A stretch of DNA of 32,800 nucleotides from a virus. Shown piece after piece: positions 20,378 to 32,254 of this stretch (the stretch's first letter is position 1; each line of letters starts with the position of its first letter). Under the pieces are notes generated by a model. That model had not been told where the DNA came from. It searched no databases and was given only the letters and a program-made list of their open reading frames with translations. The stretch lies in UHGV virus genome UHGV-0201141. One strand, 5' to 3'. The position numbers were made by a program, and so were the translations under genes.

Positions 20378-21790
20378 GTGGCAACTTGGCAACAGAGCAT
20401 CAACTCCGGTGGTTTTCTGGCTGGAATTGGTGCGCAAAATGAGAATGCGCCAAAGGCGAGTGATGTAAATGAGACACTGGCTTACATTCGTCAGAATAAT
20501 GAGGATGCCAGGCTTGGTCGCAACAATATCGGTCTGCAGGCTCTGCAGGGAATAACAAGCACAATGCAAGGATTGCAGCAATATGATCAGCAGAAGCAAG
20601 AGGCAGCATTCAGAAAGGATTATGCTTCTGCTATTCAATCAGGTGATCGACAGCAGGTGCGAGATTTGATGACCAAATATCCTGGTCAATTAGAGAAGAT
20701 TCAGTCTGGCATGAAGTGGGCAGACGAAGACCAGCGCAATTCTATCGGCACCTTAGCGGCTGGCGCACGCCTTGCGGCCTCGTCTCCAGAAGCAATGCAA
20801 TCATGGCTGCAAAACAACGCCAATGAGCTGGCGCGCGTCGGTGTTGACCCTAATAACGTTGCTCAGATGTATCAGCAGAATCCTTCAGGATTTGGTGAGT
20901 TTGTTGATCACCTTGGAATGGCTGCTCTTGGTCCGATTGACTACTTCAATGTTCAGGACAAGATGGCTGGTCGTGAGATTGACCGAGGCAGGCTGGCAGA
21001 GACAATCCGCAGCAATCAGGCTGGTGAAGCACTTCAGGCGAGAGGGCAAAACCTTTCCTATCAGTCAGCAATGACTGGGCACAATATCGCAGCACAACGC
21101 TTGGCTCTGGATCAGCAAGAGTTCGGGTTTAAGATGCAGCAAGCGCAGGAAAAGGCTCAGCAGTTGATTAGTGAAGCACCTAAGCTGTCAGTAAACATGG
21201 AAAAAGGCATCGAGACGGCCGTAAACAATGCTACAGCATCATCAAACTCAGCCAATTCTATGAGTGCGCTTGCTCAACAGTTCAGAGCAGAAAAACCAAC
21301 GACAGGTTTGTTCGGTAACGCACAGAACATGTTCGCAAAACTTACCGGAAGCGATACGACATTGCGTGATTTGCGCATTCGCCAAAATGCCCTTGTTAAC
21401 AGTCAGGTTCTTAAATTCCTACCTCCCGGCCCAGCAACGGATAAAGACGTTGAGATCGTTCGGCAGGGTGCGCCAACTGACATGGATAATCCTGAGACGG
21501 TCGCAAGATGGCTTGATGCGATGGCAAACCTTGAGCGACGAAACGCGCAGTTTAATGAGTTTAAAGCCGAGTGGATGAGCGCGAATGGCAACCCAGGACA
21601 ATCGCGCAATGGCGGTCAGATATTGGGGTTGGATGTTAAAAAAGGTGAATCATTGGGGAGTGCCGTTAAGCGGTATATGTCAATGAATACTGACGCAGCG
21701 CCAGCACAAGATTCGACTCCTTCAGGAGAACCACGGAATCAGGTTGGATCATATACCTCAAAATCAGGCATTCAATTTACGGTGGAATGA
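20378..21790 (+). CDS. Ejection protein (P22 gp20-like)
   Basis: 470 aa; position; GTG start with GGAGGTG RBS. Confidence 0.6.
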
Positions 21791-23628
21791 TGAAAGTAAC
21801 TGCAAACGGTAAGACATTTACCTTTCCTGATGGTACGAGCACCGAAGATATTGGCACCGCCATTGATGAGTATTTTGCTGGTCAGGCTGTTCAGCAACAA
21901 ACAGTTAATCAGGCCAATAATGCACCAACACGGGACGAACCATCATTGATGCAACAAGCTGGCGATTGGCTCACTGGTGGTCAAAGTGCAGGGCAAATTG
22001 CAGAACAGGCTGGTCGTGGTCTGGTAAACATACCATTTGACGTATTGCAGGGTGGCGCAAGTCTGATTAATGCAATCAGTCAGGGGCTTGGTGGGCCAAA
22101 AGTTTTAGATGATGTTTATCGTCCAGTAGACAAACCGACAGACCCATACGCACAAGCCGGTGAAACAATTGGTGGGTATTTAGTTCCAGGAGTTGGAACG
22201 GCAGGAAGCATGGCTATTGGATCGCTGGCAGAGGCCGCAAATCAGAAAGGCGATTTCGCACAAAATGCAGCCAAAAATGCCGGAGTTAACCTTGCCGCTC
22301 AGGGGGTTCTTTCCGCAGCAGCAAAGGGAATAGGGCGTGGAATAACGGCTATAAAAGGTGATATTGCGCCAGAGGTGGCGAAGAAAATTGCCACCTCAGA
22401 ATCGATGGGCGTGACACCAATGACATCTGATGTTATCCCGCCGAAAAATGCTTTCACTCGCGGCCTTACTCAGGACGCCGAGGGGGCTTTGCTCGGGACA
22501 GGCTCAAAGCGAGCGGAGCAATATGCAACGCGTAGTAAGCTGGTAAGCAATTATTTTGACCGTTTTGGTGAGTACAACCCTGATGATGTGGTGAAATCTC
22601 TGACCACCACGTTAAGGGGGCGGAAGGATGCTGCTGGCGCTGTTATCAATGACGTCACCAATAAAATGGGTAATGCCGCAGTTGATACCACAAATACCAT
22701 GAATGCTCTGAATACAGCGATCGCAAGACAGGAACGGCTTGGGACGTCTGCCAATCAAAGCCTGCTTACATCCTTGCGTAACCTACGTGAAGAATTAGCA
22801 AACCCTGCAACTGATTTGGATGTTACGTTTGATCTCTTGCGTCAGCACAGAACAGCATTTAGATCTAATGTTCAGGGAGATGCTATGGTCTTCCCCAACC
22901 AGGCAAAAGCAGCTACCAATATGGTAGAGAATGCAATGTCAAAAGACCTTCGTAACGCAGTTGCTAAAAACCTCGGTGCATCAGACGCAGCAAAATACCT
23001 TAAAGCAAATTCCGATTATGCAAACGTTTATAATAAGGTGCTTAATAAAAACATTGCCAACAAGCTCAACAAGGCAAGCAGTGAAGCCAGTCCTGAACTT
23101 ATAAATACCGTTGTATTAAGCAGAAAACCATCTGACGTGAAACGAATCTGGAGCGCACTGGATGATAAGGGGAAAGATGCTATGCGTGCAGCTTACGTCA
23201 GCAAAATAGCGGAAAAGGCCGGGGACTCTCCAGCCAAGTTCATCACTGAAGTTAATAAGCTGAAATCTCAGTCAGGCGGTGAAATTTACAACACTATTTT
23301 TTCTGGAAAGCACATGAAAGAGCTTGATGCTCTTCATGAAGTTCTACAGCAAACAGCAAGGTCAGACACCGCAAATGTAGTAACTCAGACGGGGCAATCG
23401 CAAGCCAACAGGATAAGGACGATTGGCGCAACTGCGACCCTTGGCGTATCAATGGGGCTTGAGGCTGGTTTTGGTGCAATGATGCGCTTGTATGAGTCCA
23501 AAGCAGCAAGGAATATGCTTCTTCGTTTGGCAAACACCAAAGCAGGAACACCAGCCTATGAAAGAGCGATAAATAACGCTGCGAATGCCATCAGACCGCT
23601 GTTTGCTACTGAGGCAACACAGCAGTAA
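21787..23628 (+). CDS. Ejection protein (P22 gp16-like)
   Basis: 613 aa; position; ATGATGA overlap with upstream gene. Confidence 0.6.
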
Positions 23629-23652
23629 CGTATGGGAAATTGGATTCAATCG

Positions 23653-24042
23653 CTAACATTTTCTTTTTACTTTTCCAACAAAAGCTTTGGTTGAATCCAT
23701 ATTTCCATAACCGGAAATGGTTTTTGACATTAAAACTGTTCCAGTAGGATGTATTACCCATGAGTCGATAACGCGTTGAGTTTCGCCATTCGCGCCGATT
23801 CCTATGATGGAGTTTTTAGACAATGCTTTGTAAGCCATGCCGCCCGCATCTGTCCCAGAATATGTGATGCTGGCATCTTCACCGTTTGTCTTAATGATGA
23901 ATGTTCCACTAAAACCATCTTCTTCCGGATGGAAATTATTTCGTTCTGAATAGCTTATTCCGCGCATATCTCCAACGACCCAGCACTCTGCTGTAGCCCC
24001 AAAAGATATGAATAAGAACATAGCAGTAAGAAATTGCTTCAC
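23653..24042 (-). CDS. Small secreted protein of unknown function (signal peptide, two Cys)
   Basis: GTG start at 24042 with AAGGAGG RBS 5 nt upstream; N-terminus MKQFLTAMFLFISFGATA then E, a typical Sec signal peptide. Confidence 0.6.
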   Translation of the reverse strand: MKQFLTAMFLFISFGATAECWVVGDMRGISYSERNNFHPEEDGFSGTFIIKTNGEDASITYSGTDAGGMAYKALSKNSIIGIGANGETQRVIDSWVIHPTGTVLMSKTISGYGNMDSTKAFVGKVKRKC

Positions 24043-24102
24043 GCCAACCTCCTTAGTTTTGAGCAGGATACCAGATGATAATGTGTCGCTTCCTAAAGGA
24101 TA

Positions 24103-24744
24103 TCAAAGCAACGGGATTTCAAGGTAAACTGCGGTTGCCAAAATACTAACATCTTCATTTCTAACAAGAATATTAGGATACATTGGGTTTAGGGATACTA
24201 GGTTTGTCTCTATTTCACCAATGTAAACCTGTTTGAAGCTCAATATTTGCTCTTTATCCAATGATGCTATTACATAATCTTTGCTTTTAGCTTTTACTAG
24301 AGGGCTGAACGTGACAACCGATCCTCTGGGAAAGCTAATACCTGAACTTGTAGTCATAGCTTCACCTTCAATAGTCAATGCAAATGCAGAGTCACCAACA
24401 TTGTATATTGCCGGATGAAATCTAGACGATGAATGTTCACCTGTGTTTAGGTAATGCATAACTTCATCTAGTTTGAGGATTGGTATTTGCTTTACCAGAA
24501 CGTCAGGCATGACGTTTTTTGTTCCCGGACCCTGACCTTCACCCAGAGCTAACCACTCAGCTGTAGTACCTAATGCGTTGGCTAATGCCTGCAATACCCG
24601 AAGCCGTGGTTTAGCCTCACCACCCTCGTATGCTGCTATTTGACGTTGAACAACACCAGCTAATTTTGACAACTGCGCCTGCGTCATACCCCTGGACTGT
24701 CTTGCCAGAGATACTCTTGATGGGAATTGATCGTCAAAATTCAT
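24103..24744 (-). CDS. CI-like repressor (HTH_XRE N-domain plus S24/LexA-like C-domain, apparently non-cleavable)
   Basis: N-terminal HTH (MTQAQLSKLAGVVQRQIAAYEGG); C-terminal segment DSAFALTIEGEAM...SFPRG...FKQV...LNPMYPNI parallels the lambda CI C-domain as I recall it, but with Ala where the catalytic Ser would be. Confidence 0.75.
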   Translation of the reverse strand: MNFDDQFPSRVSLARQSRGMTQAQLSKLAGVVQRQIAAYEGGEAKPRLRVLQALANALGTTAEWLALGEGQGPGTKNVMPDVLVKQIPILKLDEVMHYLNTGEHSSSRFHPAIYNVGDSAFALTIEGEAMTTSSGISFPRGSVVTFSPLVKAKSKDYVIASLDKEQILSFKQVYIGEIETNLVSLNPMYPNILVRNEDVSILATAVYLEIPLL

Positions 24745-24765
24745 TAGTTCACCATAAAAAATTCA

Positions 24766-24794
24766 TTGACTCATACTGAGTGTGAGTGAATAAT
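24766..24794 (+). promoter_or_regulatory. Candidate sigma70 promoter for the arc-like/antirepressor operon, with palindromic operator-like site
   Basis: -35 TTGACT (24766-24771), 17-bp spacer, -10 AATAAT (24789-24794); palindrome ACTCA-TAC-TGAGT at 24769-24781 overlaps the -35. Confidence 0.5.
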
Positions 24795-24843
24795 CAAACT
24801 ACAAAAAGTGAGATTATGAGTTTTTTAAAAACAGGAGTGCATA

Positions 24844-25017
24844 ATGACTGAAAAGATATCTTCCATCAAGCCGCGTCAGGTTCGTTTTACAGAAAAGGTT
24901 GATTCACATATCCGCGAATCAGCAAAAAGATGCCATAGGTCAATTCAGGCAGAGATAGCTTATCGAATGGAGTTATTGATGAAACTTGAGGCAAAGGGCG
25001 ATGTTGTCATCCAATAA
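24844..25017 (+). CDS. Arc-like ribbon-helix-helix protein (57 aa, below track cutoff)
   Basis: ATG at 24844 with AGGAG RBS; small basic product with predicted N-terminal strand then helices, resembling Arc/Mnt-type RHH repressors; directly upstream of the antirepressor. Confidence 0.55.
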   Translation: MTEKISSIKPRQVRFTEKVDSHIRESAKRCHRSIQAEIAYRMELLMKLEAKGDVVIQ

Positions 25018-25090
25018 AAATAGTGAAGCCCGGCAGTGCGCGAACACAAACCGGGCCTCTATGTCAGTAACCGTATGCAAGGAAACTAAC

Positions 25091-25717
25091 ATGAATATTG
25101 TAGCAAAATCAGATTACAACTTCCACGGAGTTGAGTTGGTGCCCACCCGTGATATGCATGGTGTTTGGTTTACGTCATCTAATATTGCATCTGCACTTAA
25201 ATATGCAAATAGCCGTGCAGTAACAATGATTTATAACAAGTATAGCGATGAGTTTAGCACCGGAATGACTCAGGTACTCGAAGTGAGTACCTCAGGAAAT
25301 TATCGCAAAAAAGTGCGAGTTTTCTCACTACGCGGTGCCCACCTAATCGCGATGTTTGCTCGCACTCCGGTAGCAAAAGAGTTCCGCCGCTGGGTGCTGG
25401 ATATTTTGGATCGGCAGGCAGAATGCTCACCGATTGCAAAACAGTTTACTGACGAAGAACTGGTTAATCTCTGCTACTTACAATTGTGGATGGAGAAGAG
25501 TCAACAAATGTGCAAACACATCTACCCAGGAATGAAGCAAATTTGTTCTGAGCTTTCAGGAAGGATTTACGATATCGCATATGAGACTCGCTATATGTCA
25601 GAAGAAACCAAGAAATCACTTCTTCGTGAAATGAAGAATCTTGATACCAACAATTTTGTCGTAAAGAACGCTCAGCCAATGCTGGCAAAACTGCGCGGCG
25701 AGGAATGGATTCATTGA
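25091..25717 (+). CDS. Antirepressor, Bro-N domain family
   Basis: N-terminus MNIVAKSDYNFHGVELVPTRDMHGVWFTSSNIASALKY fits the Bro-N pattern; AAGGA RBS; the track start at 24986 overlaps the arc-like gene and is rejected. Confidence 0.65.
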   Translation: MNIVAKSDYNFHGVELVPTRDMHGVWFTSSNIASALKYANSRAVTMIYNKYSDEFSTGMTQVLEVSTSGNYRKKVRVFSLRGAHLIAMFARTPVAKEFRRWVLDILDRQAECSPIAKQFTDEELVNLCYLQLWMEKSQQMCKHIYPGMKQICSELSGRIYDIAYETRYMSEETKKSLLREMKNLDTNNFVVKNAQPMLAKLRGEEWIH

Positions 25718-25805
25718 TTGGTGCGCCGGACGGCGCAAAAAGAAAACCGCCAGTGTGCTGCTGGCGGCCTATGTCACACCCTTACTACCACATAAGGAAT
25801 GCCTA

Positions 25806-26534
25806 ATGACTTTTAAGAATGTAGCAAACATCGGATCCGTTGTCACGGATAAAACCATTGACAGCCAGCGCCTTCTTGAGATGGTAAATCAGGCTCGTAG
25901 ACAGTGCGGTGAGCCGGAGGTTCGTAATAACAAATTCATCGAGAAAATTGAAGATGAATTGGATGGAGAGCACTACACAAAAAGTGTAGTGCAAAAAGCG
26001 AACAAAACTTCGATGGTTATCATTGAGATGTCAATCAAGCAAGCATTGCGAGTTGCCGCTCGCGAGTCAAAAGCCGTTCGCCGCTCACTGGTAGACCAAC
26101 TTGAAAGTATGCAAGAAGCGCACATTAAAAGCGGTAAATCAGCGAGTGGACTTGTTGAGTATCGTCAAGCGCGAACATTGAAAATGACGGTTGAAGCTGT
26201 TACCAATCTGTTCGATCTGATGCCAAATCTTGCGCCTGAGGCAAAGCAGACAGCGGCAGCAAGTATAATCAACCCGCTCGTTGGTTTTAATGCAATACCT
26301 CTTCCGGCAATAGAAGAGCATTACTACTCAGCAGGGGAGGTTGCAGAGCAGCTTGGAGTAACGGCCAACAAGATTGGTCGCATTGCTAACGCAAACAACC
26401 TCAAAACTGAGCAGTACGGGAAGTTCTTCCTGGATAAATCGGCGCATTCCAGCAAACAGGTAGAGGCGTTCCGTTACAATTCTGAAGGCGTTAAAGCACT
26501 ACAACACCTACTACATGGCTCAAATGTGGCGTAA
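25806..26534 (+). CDS. Hypothetical protein (possible antirepressor-associated or DNA-binding protein)
   Basis: ATG at 25806 with AAGGA RBS; track start at 25755 is a GTG inside a hairpin; last gene of the + strand operon before a terminator. Confidence 0.5.
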   Translation: MTFKNVANIGSVVTDKTIDSQRLLEMVNQARRQCGEPEVRNNKFIEKIEDELDGEHYTKSVVQKANKTSMVIIEMSIKQALRVAARESKAVRRSLVDQLESMQEAHIKSGKSASGLVEYRQARTLKMTVEAVTNLFDLMPNLAPEAKQTAAASIINPLVGFNAIPLPAIEEHYYSAGEVAEQLGVTANKIGRIANANNLKTEQYGKFFLDKSAHSSKQVEAFRYNSEGVKALQHLLHGSNVA

Positions 26535-26553
26535 CATTTTATAATGAAAACTA

Positions 26554-26577
26554 AACCCGCTTAATCGCGGGTTTTTT
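26554..26577. terminator. Terminator hairpin between convergent genes
   Basis: Stem AACCCGC / GCGGGTT followed by TTTTTT on the + strand; overlaps the stop codon of the mnt-like gene. Confidence 0.6.
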
Positions 26578-26818
26578 CTTTCCTTAGAATTTCAGCCGCA
26601 ACTTCTTTTACTCGTTCCGAGATTAATGAGGCCAGCCTCTCTTCTTCATCACGATACCCGCTTACAGGTGATGGTTTGGAGAGCGATTCTTCCATCGTAG
26701 CCACAATTTCGGAATTGATAGACCTGTTATTCATTTTTGCACGTTGCTTAATCTTGGCGTGCAACTCGTGCGTAAGCCTCAAGTGGAACTGCGCCTCATC
26801 GTATTTGCTGTACATCAT
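26561..26818 (-). CDS. mnt: Mnt-like ribbon-helix-helix repressor
   Basis: 85-aa product with F.LR...E...K.K.RA..N.RS.NSE...LSKPSPVSGYR...ERLA pattern resembling P22 Mnt as I recall it; the 217-aa track ORF is an over-extension across the tailspike start. Confidence 0.7.
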   Translation of the reverse strand: MMYSKYDEAQFHLRLTHELHAKIKQRAKMNNRSINSEIVATMEESLSKPSPVSGYRDEEERLASLISERVKEVAAEILRKEKTRD

Positions 26819-26950
26819 CAATGCCTCACCAAATGGGTGGAATGGCATCGTAAAACCTACTGTACAAATCAACAATCGTACCGTTTCGGTATGCAACAAA
26901 TACCAACCGTAGCCATGCTGCGGCGATTCCTTGTATCTGGAGCAAATTAA

Positions 26951-29656
26951 ATGACAGACATTACAGCCAATGTTGTAGTGAGCATGCCTTCGCAACTCTT
27001 CACTATGGCGCGTTCTTTTAAAGCCGTAGCTAATGGCAAAATTTATATCGGTAAAATTGACACTGACCCGGTAAATCCTGAAAACCAGATTCAGGTTTAT
27101 GTAGAGAACGAAGACGGTTCTCACATTCCTGTTTCGCAACCAATCATCATTAACGCTGCTGGTTATCCGGTATATAACGGACAGATTTCCAAATTCGTTA
27201 CCGTGCAAGGCCATTCTATGGCTGTTTATGATGCATATGGTGCTAAGCAGTTCTATTTTCCGAATGTGCTGAAGTATGACCCAGATCAGTTTGGCCCAGA
27301 CTTCAAAGAGCAGTTATCTCAATCAGGAGCATACATTAATGATGATTCAAAAGGTGATGCATTAATTGGGGTAAGGCAGCCATTTACCGGGGCTGTAACT
27401 ATAACTCAGCATGAAAACAATGCTCTTTTCTTAAATGTAAAACAATTTGGAGCAATTGGGGATGGGAAATATCATCCATTATCTGAGTGGTTTTCTTCAA
27501 TTTCTGAAGCAAAATCCTTATATCCTTTTGTTGACTCATTATCTCAGTCAATAGACTGGGCCGCGTGGCAAGCTGCCCTTAACACAGGAAAGGTTATTTA
27601 TGGTACTGATAATGCGTATGTAATAACGGATACGTTAACACCTGTTTCTGGTGGTGGGATAATTTGTCTTGGTGTGGGCAAATGGGTCTCAGGATATACT
27701 GCAACATTTGCTCCTGATATTACCACAGGGACCACATTCCTGATGTACGGTGTAGGAAATAAAAAATATACTGTAGATTGTGTTTCTAATATGGATGTTA
27801 GTGGTGGTGTGGTTTCTAATCCATCTTCCGAAGACCCGTATACAACAACGGCACCTGCGTCATCATATGATTTATTGGATTTTACTAACGGTGATGCTAA
27901 TGGGGCTACAAGAGCCACGCTTAAACCATTCTCTGCCGCAATATTGATGCCAGAGACAGGATGTGTTCGCCTTGAGAACTTTCGTATTGTTCCATATTTC
28001 AATGGGCTGGATGGTTATAAAGACATTGCAAATACCGGTCTTGGCGATGAGTGGGATGTAGGTATTTGGTCACGTGCGTCTTTTGGCAATGAATACCGCA
28101 ATTTGCAGGTGGTTGGATACTGGCGCAAGACGGCACTTTTAAAAACGAACATTCCTGTATCTGGCACGCTGGCCGCTCAGGGCGAGGATGAAAACTATTA
28201 TCACTGTAGATTCCAGGGATTCAAGGGTGTTTCGATCCGCGCCCATGATGTATTCCGAATTACAGCGGTAACGTCCAGCACTATCGAAATTCCATGGTCA
28301 GCAAGCCACACCTTCGAAACGTCCGGGGTTTTAAGATCTGTAGGCAGGAATTTCACTTATTCAGGATTATCCGTATCCGGTGATAAGTTAGTATTTACTG
28401 GAGTGTCTAACGCTTCTGAGGCAACAGTAGGTTCTACTATACGGCGAAATGACATAGATAACTTTGGTATGGCGGGAACGCAATTTTTCGATTGCTACAT
28501 TACCAGCCTGTATCACCACACACATCTGCTTGCCACATCGCAATACCTGTCTCAACCATTCAGCCGACCATCAGAGTGTATGGAGGTTTCAGGGGAACCA
28601 GTTCGCGGTGTACAGGTACATGCAGGAACCATTCAGGGATGGGATGATGTTCTTATTCATCTGCATGACTGTGGAAATATGAACTTTTACAGTACATATT
28701 TCGAAAGCCAGCAAGCATATGTAACTATAAATGGTGGTAATGCTATTGGTTATGGAGCACGTATGATAGCTTCCCGGCAATCAACAAGCTCATTACCATA
28801 TGCAGCAGGGAATACACGAGTGCTTAGAATGGTCGGGTGCTCTGAAGGCAATGGCGTTGACTGGGGTCCTGTATTTAACAACTATACAGGAGGAAGATAT
28901 AATTCTGGAGACGGTGTATTTAACCCCCGCGATGCATTTATAGACCATAAATCTCTTCCTGAGCAGTCAGGAGGTGAGTCAAGACTCGTATCACAAAAAG
29001 GAAATGCCAGAGTAGTATGTGGTGTTGGTAAAACTGTACTGCTTGGACCAACGTCAGGAGATTGTAATTTACAGAGTAATACCGGAAGTTTAAATATTAG
29101 AAGTGGGATAAGAGTAAGAGTCGGTCACGCTGATGGAACAGACTGGTGGTTGGCAGATGCTAATAAAATAGCTCCTGTTGATGATAATGTTAAAGCTATT
29201 GGACAGCCATCAAACAGATGCTCTGTTATCTATGCAGGAACCGGGTCAATCAATACATCAGATGAAACTCTTAAAACAAGATATGATATTCTTAATGCAG
29301 AGCGTGATGCCGCTATTGAAATAAAGTCAGTCATCTATAAATTTAAATTTAATGACTCAATTAATCACAAAGGAATTGAGTCGTCCAGGTATCATTTTGG
29401 CGTTGGCGCTCAAACCGTAGGGGATATTCTTAGAAAGCATGGTTTAAATCCTGAGCAATATGCTTTTTGGTGTTACGATGAATGGCCTGACGTATGGGAT
29501 GAAGAGGTGATAACTGAAGAGAGCACAGATCCTGATACAGGTGAGAAAATTTATTCTCAATATAAAACAGGAGATATGATTCTTGTAAAAAAAGCAGGAG
29601 GACGCTACGGAATTCGTTATGACGAATTGGCTATGTTTATATTAATGGCAATGTAG
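26951..29656 (+). CDS. Tailspike: P22-type head-binding N-domain, divergent receptor-binding domain, C-terminal intramolecular chaperone (peptidase S74-like)
   Basis: N-terminus [11 protein letters not shown]...[33 protein letters not shown]...LKYDPDQ matches the P22 gp9 N-domain; the last ~130 aa carry S74-chaperone-like motifs (TSDETLK...[11 protein letters not shown]). Confidence 0.8.
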
Positions 29657-29674
29657 TTGCAATAAATGCAGTAT

Positions 29675-29705
29675 ATCCCGCATAAAAATGCGGGATTGTT
29701 TTTAT
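29675..29705 (+). terminator. Intrinsic terminator after tailspike
   Basis: Stem ATCCCGCAT / ATGCGGGAT, AAAA loop, followed by TGTTTTTAT. Confidence 0.75.
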
Positions 29706-29828: not shown

Positions 29829-31010
29829 CTATCTGAGATATAGCAATGTTGGTTGCTCCACCTTTTCATCAAGCCAGTCCGCCCACCACTGCATCATTTC
29901 TCTGCGCTTATCGAGATACTGAGCATGGTTGTAAATCCCGCGCACAGATCCGCCATTGGCATGTGCCAGTTGCACCTCAATAGCGTCAGCAGGCCATTCG
30001 TGCTCGTTCATAATCGTGCTGAATTCATGCCTGAATCCGTGACCGCTTTCCAGACCCTCATAGCCGATTTGTTTGATCACAAGTAGCACCGCGTTCTCGC
30101 AGATTGGCTTCTTCTTATCGTTGCGCCCGGCAAAAACAAACTCTGATACTGGTTTAGTGATTGAGCTTAGTGTAGTGAGAAGTTCAACCACCTGGTCTGA
30201 CATCGGGACAACATGAATTTTGCGTCCCTTCATCACACTGGCGTCGATGGTGATAATCATGTTTTCAAAATCGACGTTCTTCCATAGCATGGAACGAAGC
30301 TCTTTCGTTCTTAGGGCTGTGTAGCGTAAGACTTTGGTCGCAATGAGCGATACGATACTTCCTGAAAATGTTGCCAGTGCTTTGTTGAATGCAGGGATCT
30401 GGTCTGCTGGAAGAAACGGGAAGTTCTTCTTGCGGTATCCTTTCATGGCGTCTGCAAGGTCAGGTGCCGGGTTATATTTAGCCCTTCCGGTGACAATAGC
30501 GTAACGAAAAACCTCGCCGCATCTTCTGCGGGCTTTATTGGCTCGTTCCATTGCACCGCGATCTTCAAATCTGCGGATTACTTCCAGCAGTTGCATCGGC
30601 TCAATATCCTGAATCTCAAGACCGCCGATGATGGGCAAAATGTCGTCATCAAACATTTTGGCAAGTTCAGTCGCATACCCTACAGACCAGACTTGCTTCT
30701 TGTGCTCGTACCATTCCTTGTAAATGGCGCTAAAGGAATTGTTGTTAGACGAAGCCTTTTTCGCTTTTACCGGATCGATGCCAACCGAGATGTCTTTCCT
30801 CGCAGTCCATGCCTTATCCCTTGCCTCCTGCAAAGTCATAAGCGGATATTTTCCGACGGTCAGGATTTTCTCCTTACCGTCAATCTTGTAGCGAAGCTGC
30901 CATACCTTTTTCCCGGATACAGGGACATAAAGGTACAGGCCATTACCATCGAGAAGGCGGTATGGTTTTTCTTTCGGCTTTGCTGCTTCAATCTGCTTAA
31001 CGGTGAGCAT
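29829..31010 (-). CDS. intS: Tyrosine integrase, IntS/P4-like family
   Basis: C-terminal catalytic pattern HGFRHEFST...LAHANGGSVRGIYNHAQY; ATG at 31010 (MLTVKQIEAAKPKEKPYRL...) preferred over the track's GTG at 31046; lies beside the tRNA 3' end. Confidence 0.85.
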   Translation of the reverse strand: MLTVKQIEAAKPKEKPYRLLDGNGLYLYVPVSGKKVWQLRYKIDGKEKILTVGKYPLMTLQEARDKAWTARKDISVGIDPVKAKKASSNNNSFSAIYKEWYEHKKQVWSVGYATELAKMFDDDILPIIGGLEIQDIEPMQLLEVIRRFEDRGAMERANKARRRCGEVFRYAIVTGRAKYNPAPDLADAMKGYRKKNFPFLPADQIPAFNKALATFSGSIVSLIATKVLRYTALRTKELRSMLWKNVDFENMIITIDASVMKGRKIHVVPMSDQVVELLTTLSSITKPVSEFVFAGRNDKKKPICENAVLLVIKQIGYEGLESGHGFRHEFSTIMNEHEWPADAIEVQLAHANGGSVRGIYNHAQYLDKRREMMQWWADWLDEKVEQPTLLYLR

Positions 31011-31246
31011 GGGTAAAAATCCGGTGGGTAAAATTATTTTATCCACTTTTTACCCGTCATGGTGTGCGGCTGTCAACGATCTGACGCGAACCATTACGAA
31101 CTGTGAATCTATGGAAGGCTTGATATGCAGGGGATTTTGCGGACTAGTACGGATGGGAGCGAACTGATAAATGGTGTCCCCTGCAGGAATCGAACCTGCA
31201 ATTAGCCCTTAGGAGGGGCTCGTTATATCCATTTAACTAAGAGGAC
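31011..31246. other. Putative attL region (integrase-tRNA intergenic DNA plus tRNA 3' end)
   Basis: Inferred from the tRNA-int arrangement; core and arm sites not delimited because the second att copy lies outside the window. Confidence 0.4.
31172..31246 (-). tRNA. argW: tRNA-Arg (anticodon CCU)
   Basis: Reverse complement folds as a cloverleaf: acceptor stem GTCCTCT/AGGGGAC, anticodon stem AGCCC/GGGCT with loop CTCCTAA, T-loop TTCGATT, 3' CCA encoded. Confidence 0.9.
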
Positions 31247-31321: not shown

Positions 31322-32254
31322 TTATGCCGGGTTTTTATCATTTTTCTTAATGTTTTCCGCACGTTCTGCTTTTTGACGTGCTTCTACTTTGCGCTTGTTG
31401 CTCATGTCGTTACGAATCTGTGCATGACTCATTAACGCGAAGATAAAGGTGCCGCCGCAGATGTTCCCCGCTAAAGTAGGTAGTGCGAAGGGCCAGATGA
31501 AATCGCTCCAGTGCAGCGTGCCGTTAAACACCAGATAGAGGATTTCAACAGAACCGACAACGATGTGGGTGGTGTCACCCAGGGCAATAAGCCAGGTCAT
31601 CAATATAATCACCACAATCTTTGCCGCACCCGCTGCAGGAAACATCCATACCATAGTGGCGATCAGCCAGCCGGAAATGATCGCGTTGGCAAACATCTCG
31701 CTGGGGGTGTTCTTCATCACATCCATGCCGATTTTGACAAATGCATCGCGAGTTTCTTCATTGAAGATAGGCATATATTCAAATGCCCACGCAGCAATAC
31801 CTGTCCCGATAATATTACCCAGCAGCACGATGCCCCATAACCGCATAAGTAAGCCGACGTTGCTCATTGTCGGTTTTTGCATGACGGGTAGTACCGCAGT
31901 TACGGTGTTTTCGGTAAATAATTGCTGGCGGGCCATTATGACGATAATAAAACCAAAGGTATAACCGAGATTCTCCAGCAAGAAGCTGCCCGGCACGCCT
32001 TCCAGTTCGACATGAAATATCCCTTTTGCCAGTAGCGAAGCGCCCATCGACAGGCCCGCCGCAATGGCTGACCACAGTAGCGCCATTGCGTCGCGTTCCA
32101 GCTCTTTTTCACCATCCTGGCGGATATGCTCATGAATTGCCATCGCCCGGGAGGGGAGTCGGTCTTCATCTATTTCTATTTTTTTACCGCGCTCTTTTTC
32201 TTCGCTCTCAACTTCAATTTCGTCGCTGTGTTGATCAATTTTGTCGTTGTCCAT
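31322..32254 (-). CDS. yfdC: Formate/nitrite transporter family inner-membrane protein YfdC (host)
   Basis: 310-aa multi-TM protein; sequence and position next to argW match the E. coli yfdC-argW locus as I recall it. Confidence 0.8.
   Translation of the reverse strand: MDNDKIDQHSDEIEVESEEKERGKKIEIDEDRLPSRAMAIHEHIRQDGEKELERDAMALLWSAIAAGLSMGASLLAKGIFHVELEGVPGSFLLENLGYTFGFIIVIMARQQLFTENTVTAVLPVMQKPTMSNVGLLMRLWGIVLLGNIIGTGIAAWAFEYMPIFNEETRDAFVKIGMDVMKNTPSEMFANAIISGWLIATMVWMFPAAGAAKIVVIILMTWLIALGDTTHIVVGSVEILYLVFNGTLHWSDFIWPFALPTLAGNICGGTFIFALMSHAQIRNDMSNKRKVEARQKAERAENIKKNDKNPA

Follow-up and report, generated by a model that had tools for sequence, protein, structure and literature searches.

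Tailspike gene and its anchor

The virus genome UHGV-0201141 was analyzed as a single stretch of 32,800 nucleotides (nt), referred to here as the window, which carries near its right end an intact tailspike gene (Table 1). The gene encodes the receptor-binding spike of a P22-like (Lederbergvirus-type) Escherichia coli prophage integrated at argW. It is a P22-type tailspike in the style of phage CUS-3, with a swapped body and an S74 intramolecular chaperone. The three-part architecture is already known, and the body is the part that differs. A generic annotation also exists, as the 98.8%-identical homologue in CH10508, the closest complete genome, is named "phage tailspike protein" in RefSeq, and PHROG 1171 ("tail spike protein") spans the whole protein end to end (E = 4.5e-256). 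The first-pass annotation, made from the window's letters, had placed the open reading frame (ORF) and its catalytic serine exactly, and Pfam and Protein Data Bank (PDB) chain matches agree with all three of its domain calls. It left the receptor blank, a gap that can probably be narrowed to the K13/K20/K23 capsule.

The genomic setting identifies the prophage type. The P22 injectosome translocase domain PF16928 is encoded upstream, followed by genes for an antirepressor (Bro-N and P22_AR_C domains) and an Arc-family repressor, then the tailspike and int. In CH10508 the gene order is the same, with the tailspike adjoining IntS, argW, and yfdC. Because P22-like genes lie upstream and int, argW, and yfdC downstream in both genomes, we assign the gene to a P22-like prophage at argW.

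Residues 1–113 align with positions 1–113 of the Head_binding profile PF09008 (E = 5.7e-66, 220.3 bits against a cut-off of 24), matching the P22 gp9-type domain that had been proposed for the first ~115 residues. Solved P22 and Sf6 chains together match this N-terminus at E = 1e-44 to 1e-85. The Sf6 gp14 chain 7sg7 (E = 1.2e-85) covers residues 1–175 only and full-length P22 gp9 chains (8tvr, 2xc1; E ~1e-50) residues 1–121 only, while the CUS-3 tailspike is 88% identical over amino acids (aa) 1–125. As in P22 gp9 and Sf6 gp14, residues 1–113 would anchor the trimer to the tail hub.

Table 1. Features of the tailspike gene and its surroundings in the window
Feature	Position (nt)	Strand	Details
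Tailspike gene	26951..29656	+	ATG start; 901 aa; 98.4-kDa precursor; ORF list
Shine-Dalgarno GGAG	26939..26942	+	8 nt before tailspike ATG; read from sequence
Head-binding (virion-anchor) domain, P22 gp9 type	26951..27289	+	aa 1–113; PF09008
Neck/linker with recombination junction	27290..27424	+	aa 114–158; junction nt 27292–27348
Right-handed parallel β-helix, predicted receptor-binding and depolymerase core	27425..28870	+	aa ~159–640
C-terminal stalk	28871..29257	+	aa ~641–769; ends at predicted scissile T769–S770 bond
Intramolecular chaperone (Peptidase_S74)	29258..29653	+	aa 770–901; 15.3 kDa; PF13884
Intrinsic terminator	29675..29696	+	9-bp stem, 5 GC pairs, T-run; terminator scan
P22 injectosome translocase	20378–21787		PF16928; upstream of tailspike
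ORF neighboring repressor-like gene	23653–24042	-	no Pfam match
Repressor-like gene (LexA/CI-type)	24103–24744	-	213 aa; HTH_3 and Peptidase_S24 Pfam domains
Ribbon-helix-helix-like ORF	24844–25017		57 aa; precedes antirepressor
Antirepressor	25088–25717	+	Bro-N and P22_AR_C Pfam domains
ORF after antirepressor	25806–26534	+	242 aa; no Pfam match
Arc-family repressor	26561–26806	-	81 aa; agrees with RefSeq annotation in CH10508
IntS-type tyrosine integrase	29829–31046	-	right prophage end
tRNA-Arg(CCT) (argW)	31172–31246	-	right prophage end
yfdC	31322–32254	-	marks right prophage end

Predicted self-cleavage of the C-terminal chaperone

An S74-like C-terminus cutting itself near residue 770 had also been predicted, and alignments bear out both parts of that claim at the level of sequence. 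Residues 770–832 match Peptidase_S74 (PF13884, E = 1e-4) with 23.0 bits against a curated cut-off of 22, a marginal result, cleared by 1 bit only, that counts against the assignment. The weak score is backed, however, by direct matches to six solved chaperone-bearing proteins. With phmmer, the last 200 residues match 7y5s (gp51 of the Klebsiella phage Kp7; E = 8.9e-23), 9vvr (2e-15), 3gw6 (K1F endoNF; 2e-14), and 4uw8 (T5 pb1; 6.9e-12), and further matches were obtained to 6eu4 and 3gud (phi29 gp12), all six falling within E = 1e-9 to 1e-23. The preceding stalk segment can be aligned with the parts of 7y5s, 3gw6, and 4uw8 that lie ahead of the cleavage site, and positions 126–160 of the End_tail_spike profile PF12219 align with aa 735–769, below the cut-off (22.9 vs 25 bits).

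The catalytic residues can be followed individually. The motif TSDETLK begins at residue 769, and its Ser770 (a TCA codon, nt 29258–29260) aligns with the mutant alanine of S911A (3gw6) and S1264A (4uw8) and with the native serine of 7y5s; Lys775 (nt 29273–29275) aligns with the catalytic lysines K916 (3gw6) and K1269 (4uw8). In T5 pb1, the site comprises Asp1239, Arg1250 (from the neighboring chain, a folding sensor), Thr1263, the scissile Ser1264, and Lys1269 (PMC4690869). D745 (nt 29183–29185), R756 (nt 29216–29218), and T769 align with D1239, R1250, and T1263, respectively. Conservation among 142 homologues is high throughout (D745 in 118, R756 in 123, T769 in 122, and S770 and K775 in 130 each). 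Since the catalytic residues align with those of T5 pb1 and K1F and are conserved in homologues, cleavage at T769–S770 after trimerization is strongly implied.

We propose that the S74 chaperone (residues 770–901) would nucleate trimer folding of the stalk; once R756 of the neighboring chain is in place, Ser770, activated by Lys775, would cut the T769–S770 bond. This would free the 15.3-kDa chaperone and leave an 83.1-kDa mature spike. The marginal Pfam score would also fit a domain that escapes cleavage and stays on the mature spike, serving for distal binding or stabilization. We regard this as very improbable given that all five proposed catalytic residues are present and strongly conserved in the family, that ~160 residues align with four solved self-cleaving chaperones, and that in both T5 pb1 and K1F endoNF a Ser-to-Ala mutation was needed to keep the chaperone attached (PMC4690869). 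With the S74 chaperones of K1F endoNF, T5 pb1, Kp7 gp51, and phi29 gp12 (3gud), the domain has in common its C-terminal position, the Ser-x4-Lys spacing, and the upstream Asp and Arg. It differs from them in that identity is only 25–40%, the receptor-binding body is a different one, and cleavage is a prediction here. Overall, we are highly confident in the architecture combined with the predicted self-cleavage.

A precedent for this architecture, which the first-pass annotation missed, is the CUS-3 tailspike, reportedly the endosialidase SiaK1 of Stummeyer et al. 2006 (PMID 16689790, the citation in its GenBank record). It consists of Head_binding (residues 1–113), an endosialidase core, and Peptidase_S74 (818–878). 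CUS-3, a P22-like prophage of E. coli K1, likewise joins a PF09008 anchor to an unrelated, capsule-degrading core and PF13884. Its chaperone and stalk end are 36% identical to ours over aa 734–893, with TSDGTLK aligned with TSDETLK. Both genes also occupy the same place in the genome: they follow the Arc/antirepressor (immI-type) genes and precede int, which is directly downstream here and comes after the neuO repeat in CUS-3. The cores differ, being a β-propeller endosialidase (PF12217/12195/12218) specific for K1 polysialic acid in CUS-3 and a predicted β-helix lacking such domains here. A review uses the CUS-3 tailspike as an example of module exchange among P22-type spikes (PMC5380687).

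A β-helix body with a predicted depolymerase role

Structure prediction indicates that the body folds as a right-handed parallel β-helix. The central-domain model, built from a 37-sequence alignment, was usable for aa 159–519 only, and a full-length AlphaFold2 model from a 17-sequence alignment (mean predicted local distance difference test (pLDDT) 46.7) was not used for the fold search; alignments were shallow, as >100 near-identical E. coli entries dominate database searches. The nearest solved folds are the β-helix tailspikes phi297 gp27 (4ru5) and LKA1 gp49 (4ru4), which come from Pseudomonas phages with other substrates and are 18–19% identical, sequence similarity being confined to the first ~100 residues. 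A 71-sequence family profile matches the first ~100 β-helix residues of phi297 gp27 (E = 9.4e-34) and also LKA1 gp49, phi29 gp12, glycoside hydrolase (GH) family 55 glucanases, and the Sf6 tailspike; against PDB sequences, it found no solved relative for aa ~260–700. The family is large, with 311 clusters (50% identity) at E<=1e-30.

That the middle ~650 residues are unrelated to P22 gp9, as previously claimed, holds for sequence, where P22 chains end at residue 121, and fails for fold, the β-helix class being common to both. P22 gp9 and Sf6 gp14 have in common with our spike a homologous head-binding domain, this fold class, and the same genome position. They differ in lacking the S74 chaperone and any sequence similarity past aa ~121 (gp9) or ~175 (gp14). 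Some homologues carry an endosialidase (GH58) label, which we rejected; the β-propeller PF12217 and the β-barrel insert, present in CUS-3, are absent here. The name "putative endo-N-acetylneuraminidase" on the homologue P0025 is likewise a misnomer, as the match to the endosialidase stalk model is confined to the model's last 35 residues and lies below cut-off.

Residues ~159–769 (β-helix plus stalk) would bind, and probably cleave, a host surface polysaccharide, and the body is very likely a β-helix depolymerase. Ten charged or polar residues are invariant or near-invariant in 71 diverse relatives (R345, D369, Y390, Q422, R430, D433, H522, E545, R552, and E585); none was placed in a site on the model. 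The sole indirect hint of depolymerizing activity comes from a lytic relative, KMB14, which carries two spikes and forms halo plaques (PMC11162368). Two observations weigh against this picture of the spike. The predicted model is of low quality past aa ~520 and for the stalk, so no active site was mapped, and some helix relatives do without the chaperone: in P0133, P0138, and P0139, the β-helix is 30–38% identical over the whole alignment and is followed by a short, different C-terminus without S74. The helix family is thus not obligatorily chaperone-dependent.

Body and chaperone as a mobile cassette

Similarity to the DNA of CUS-3, HK620, and other P22-like phages begins 45 nt ahead of the ATG and, at 93%, breaks off at nt 27291. 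The block 27349–29705, covering β-helix, stalk, chaperone, and terminator, is instead 98.5% identical to a gene for a 991-aa protein in strain YDC107. Megablast breakpoints lie at gene nt 341–346 and 399, and a 12-residue neck segment is common to the 991-aa form and similar in Sf6 gp14. The terminator, a strong one starting 19 nt past the stop codon, lies inside the exchanged block. The YDC107 protein (WP_105955783.1) is labelled "tail fiber domain-containing protein", and its gene lies at a different chromosomal site, adjoining yfgI/pdeF; its N-terminal anchor is 77% identical to that of phiV10, which indicates a Uetakevirus-type prophage.

These sharp homology breakpoints and the near-identical block from a Uetakevirus-type prophage uphold the horizontal acquisition suggested by the first-pass annotation, although not the grounds given for it. 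The central part is AT-rich as stated (GC 0.43 vs 0.49 over nt 1–23000), but the N-terminal domain (0.42), the chaperone (0.36), and nt 23001–26950 (0.435) are equally low or lower. Because the conserved N-terminal domain and the neighbors are as AT-rich, composition does not single out the central part, and we set it aside as evidence of transfer.

The same body and chaperone occur on other phage chassis. Kayfunavirus YZ1 (T7-like) carries them behind a T7 tail-fiber N-terminus (PF03906 and PF18668) and Vectrevirus KMB14 (SP6-like) behind a short SP6-type adaptor peptide. Over β-helix, stalk, and chaperone, aa identity is 98–99% in the Uetakevirus-type form, 72% in YZ1, and 41% in KMB14, whereas the anchors differ (P22 gp9 type here; phiV10-like, T7 tail-fiber, and SP6-type adaptor in the others). 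By sequence, the cassette thus appears nearly unchanged between two temperate podophage genera and diverged in two lytic genera. We hypothesize that modules 2 and 3 (body and chaperone) with their terminator form a cassette that recombination at the conserved neck would transfer from one phage chassis to another.

Strain 702/18 holds both temperate forms in one genome, the 991-aa Uetakevirus-type form (P0096) being accompanied by a 901-aa form split by an insertion sequence, and two proteins, one per form, are listed from one 5,249,359-bp contig. At NZ_CP074701.1 4845217–4849267, this 901-aa homologue is interrupted by an IS3-family element. Such a split copy, together with the single prophage end visible in the window, might suggest that our gene is a decaying, non-functional remnant in a defective prophage. 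We find this scarcely credible. Its 901-codon frame is intact, with ribosome-binding site and terminator, the structural and ejection genes ahead of it likewise have intact ORFs, and near-identical full-length copies number in the hundreds across independent assemblies, with 282 sequences in one cluster.

Carrier genomes point to a ribose–Kdo capsule

Matching prophage tailspikes to host glycans is an accepted approach (PMC10408124) that yields a hypothesis, not a demonstration. Among the 5,426 complete E. coli genomes surveyed, 15 carry the body-plus-chaperone module, eight with a P22-type and seven with a phiV10-type anchor. YDC107 has a group 2 kps locus whose region 2 consists only of an acetyltransferase and a 1,114-aa "HAD family hydrolase". 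Residues 2–357 of the latter match the solved KrKA structure (E = 1.8e-236), its middle matches the ribosyltransferase-phosphatase of Bcs3, and over its whole length it shares 96% identity with KrkA from the K13 reference strain NCTC9022; on these sequence matches, the gene is krkA, the K13/K20/K23 capsule polymerase gene. KrkA alone builds the backbone →3)-β-D-Ribf-(1→7)-β-D-Kdop-(2→, composed of ribose (Rib) and 3-deoxy-D-manno-oct-2-ulosonic acid (Kdo) and common to K13, K20, and K23, which differ in O-acetylation only (PMC12887879).

The krkA gene is present in 65 of the 5,426 genomes (two listings jointly cover all 65) and in 11 of the 15 carriers (YDC107, EC21Z-144, EC21Z-151, HS4, E22, CH10508, SBF22, CS5L, 702/18, UPEC_U013, and DLL7555), against 0.18 expected (odds ratio ~270, Fisher P = 4e-19; P = 2e-17 after merging the same-patient pair EC21Z-144/EC21Z-151). 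Enrichment is found in both chassis (6/8 and 5/7). Given 11 krkA-positive carriers with differing O antigens, the tailspike is probably a Rib–Kdo capsule depolymerase, and on balance we favor the group 2 capsule with the K13/K20/K23 backbone as its most likely substrate; the enzyme would cut a bond within that backbone. The acetyltransferases beside krkA are only 38% identical between YDC107 and NCTC9022, and both locus types occur among carriers, so the spike, if the capsule is its receptor, would recognize the backbone across acetylation variants. One source gives the acetylation patterns of K20 and K23 both ways: in one passage K23 is ribose-acetylated and K20 unacetylated, in another the two are swapped (PMC12887879). 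It therefore offers no basis for typing the YDC107 locus as K20 or K23.

A number of points weigh against the capsule assignment. This krkA allele group is missing from four of the 15 carriers. LS45 (NZ_CP095448.1 852760–872705) has a kps region 1 identical to that of YDC107 (the same accessions for KpsC, KpsU, KpsD, KpsE, and KpsF) and a wholly different region 2, with glf, glycosyltransferase family 2 (GT2) enzymes, an acyltransferase, and a dehydrogenase in place of krkA and the acetyltransferase. The pattern suggests that a related lineage switched its capsule once it was lysogenic; LS45 nevertheless counts as an exception. In XH992, which shares an island with LS45, the kps locus was not located; the remaining two exceptions are 23CRST013 and OZ547246, LS45 being the one in which the locus was read. 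The P value is also too favorable, as phylogenetic relatedness among the genomes violates independence. Finally, the glycan assignment comes wholly from genomes, for the tailspike and for its close relatives, and the capsule link from the carriers, as the window's own host could not be capsule-typed.

The four exceptions, LS45 with its clearly different capsule locus among them, would also fit a depolymerase with some other polysaccharide target (colanic acid, a different K antigen, or a glycan that extraintestinal pathogenic E. coli lineages have in common), with the K13-type capsule as a lineage correlate. So would the small sample of 15 genomes, some of them related (the EC21Z pair; LS45 and XH992), and the homologues also found in Escherichia marmotae. 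We consider this alternative unlikely, since the ~270-fold enrichment appears separately in both chassis and with two krkA alleles that have different acetyltransferases, and the region 2 swap of LS45 resembles post-lysogeny capsule switching.

The other alternative is an O antigen. P22 and Sf6 tailspikes cut O antigen, and both phages carry gtr or oac between tailspike and int. Our tailspike could be O-antigen-specific in the same way, as in P22, Sf6, HK620, and most Lederbergvirus and Uetakevirus prophages, with the krkA link a by-product of lineage. Most characterized P22-like and epsilon15-like tailspikes cut O antigen, the N-terminal 175 aa of our spike are closest to Sf6 gp14, and the nearest solved folds, LKA1 gp49 and phi297 gp27, are spikes of phages with O-antigen-bearing hosts. 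Prophage receptor-binding proteins usually track the host O serogroup (PMC10408124). The carriers argue for a different receptor, as their O-antigen loci differ: CH10508 has an O86 cluster, YDC107, an O102:H6 strain (PMC6035167), has O102 wzy/wzx, and DLL7555 has a sequence type 73 (ST73) background. O102 and then O86 were tried as a shared receptor and rejected. We found O102 wzy in 107 genomes and O86 wzx in 80; in each case only one of the 60 genomes listed is a module carrier. Moreover, krkA co-occurs with each of two unrelated chassis, which are inserted at different sites, and the window's ORF list has no O-antigen-modification gene between tailspike and int. O-antigen specificity is, in our view, quite improbable, and the Rib–Kdo capsule remains the preferred substrate. 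The O86 wzy of CH10508 (L008 20506–21904) is annotated as frameshifted with an internal stop; the cause is either a mistake in the assembly or a strain that is rough or semi-rough.

Genes surrounding the tailspike

Upstream of the tailspike, the region 24844–26534 forms an immI-like module whose content is unlike that of CUS-3. The 213-aa repressor-like gene has the ejection genes on one side and the Arc/antirepressor region on the other, and the lowest GC content of the window (0.372, nt 24001–24500) falls in the region of this gene. A listed 217-aa ORF (nt 26561–27214, minus strand), overlapping the tailspike start, was dismissed as an ORF-caller artefact, the real gene being that of the 81-aa Arc-family repressor. 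A bidirectional terminator-like hairpin (nt 26553–26574) is located just before the stop end of the Arc gene.

Implications

As phage biology, the spike is an instance of textbook tailspike modularity and conceptually nothing new; what makes it useful in practice is the substrate predicted for it. Biochemical descriptions of phage enzymes active on K13/K20-type capsules reportedly date from the 1990s. No sequence of a K13-type phage depolymerase was found in the searchable literature, where matches for K13/K20/K23 phage enzymes concerned Klebsiella K-types or were irrelevant, and publications on YZ1, KMB14, and LF31P3 give host sequence types, with no receptor found in them. The chances are, in our view, evenly balanced that this cassette encodes an enzyme against the Kdo-containing K13/K20/K23 capsule found on extraintestinal pathogenic E. 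coli, which would make it the first such phage enzyme to be defined by its sequence. The Rib–Kdo capsule is clinically common, and the likely target is seen on urinary-tract E. coli. Should the prediction prove right, the mature 83-kDa spike, or residues ~114–769 with the chaperone in cis, would serve as a reagent for typing or stripping capsules, could be used for retargeting phages and tailocins, and the cassette would be a genomic marker of K13/K20/K23-tropic phages. The body would then be a β-helix glycanase acting on the Rib–Kdo backbone regardless of the O-acetylation variant, and this P22-like prophage would join CUS-3 among the very few capsule-specific Lederbergvirus-type coliphages.

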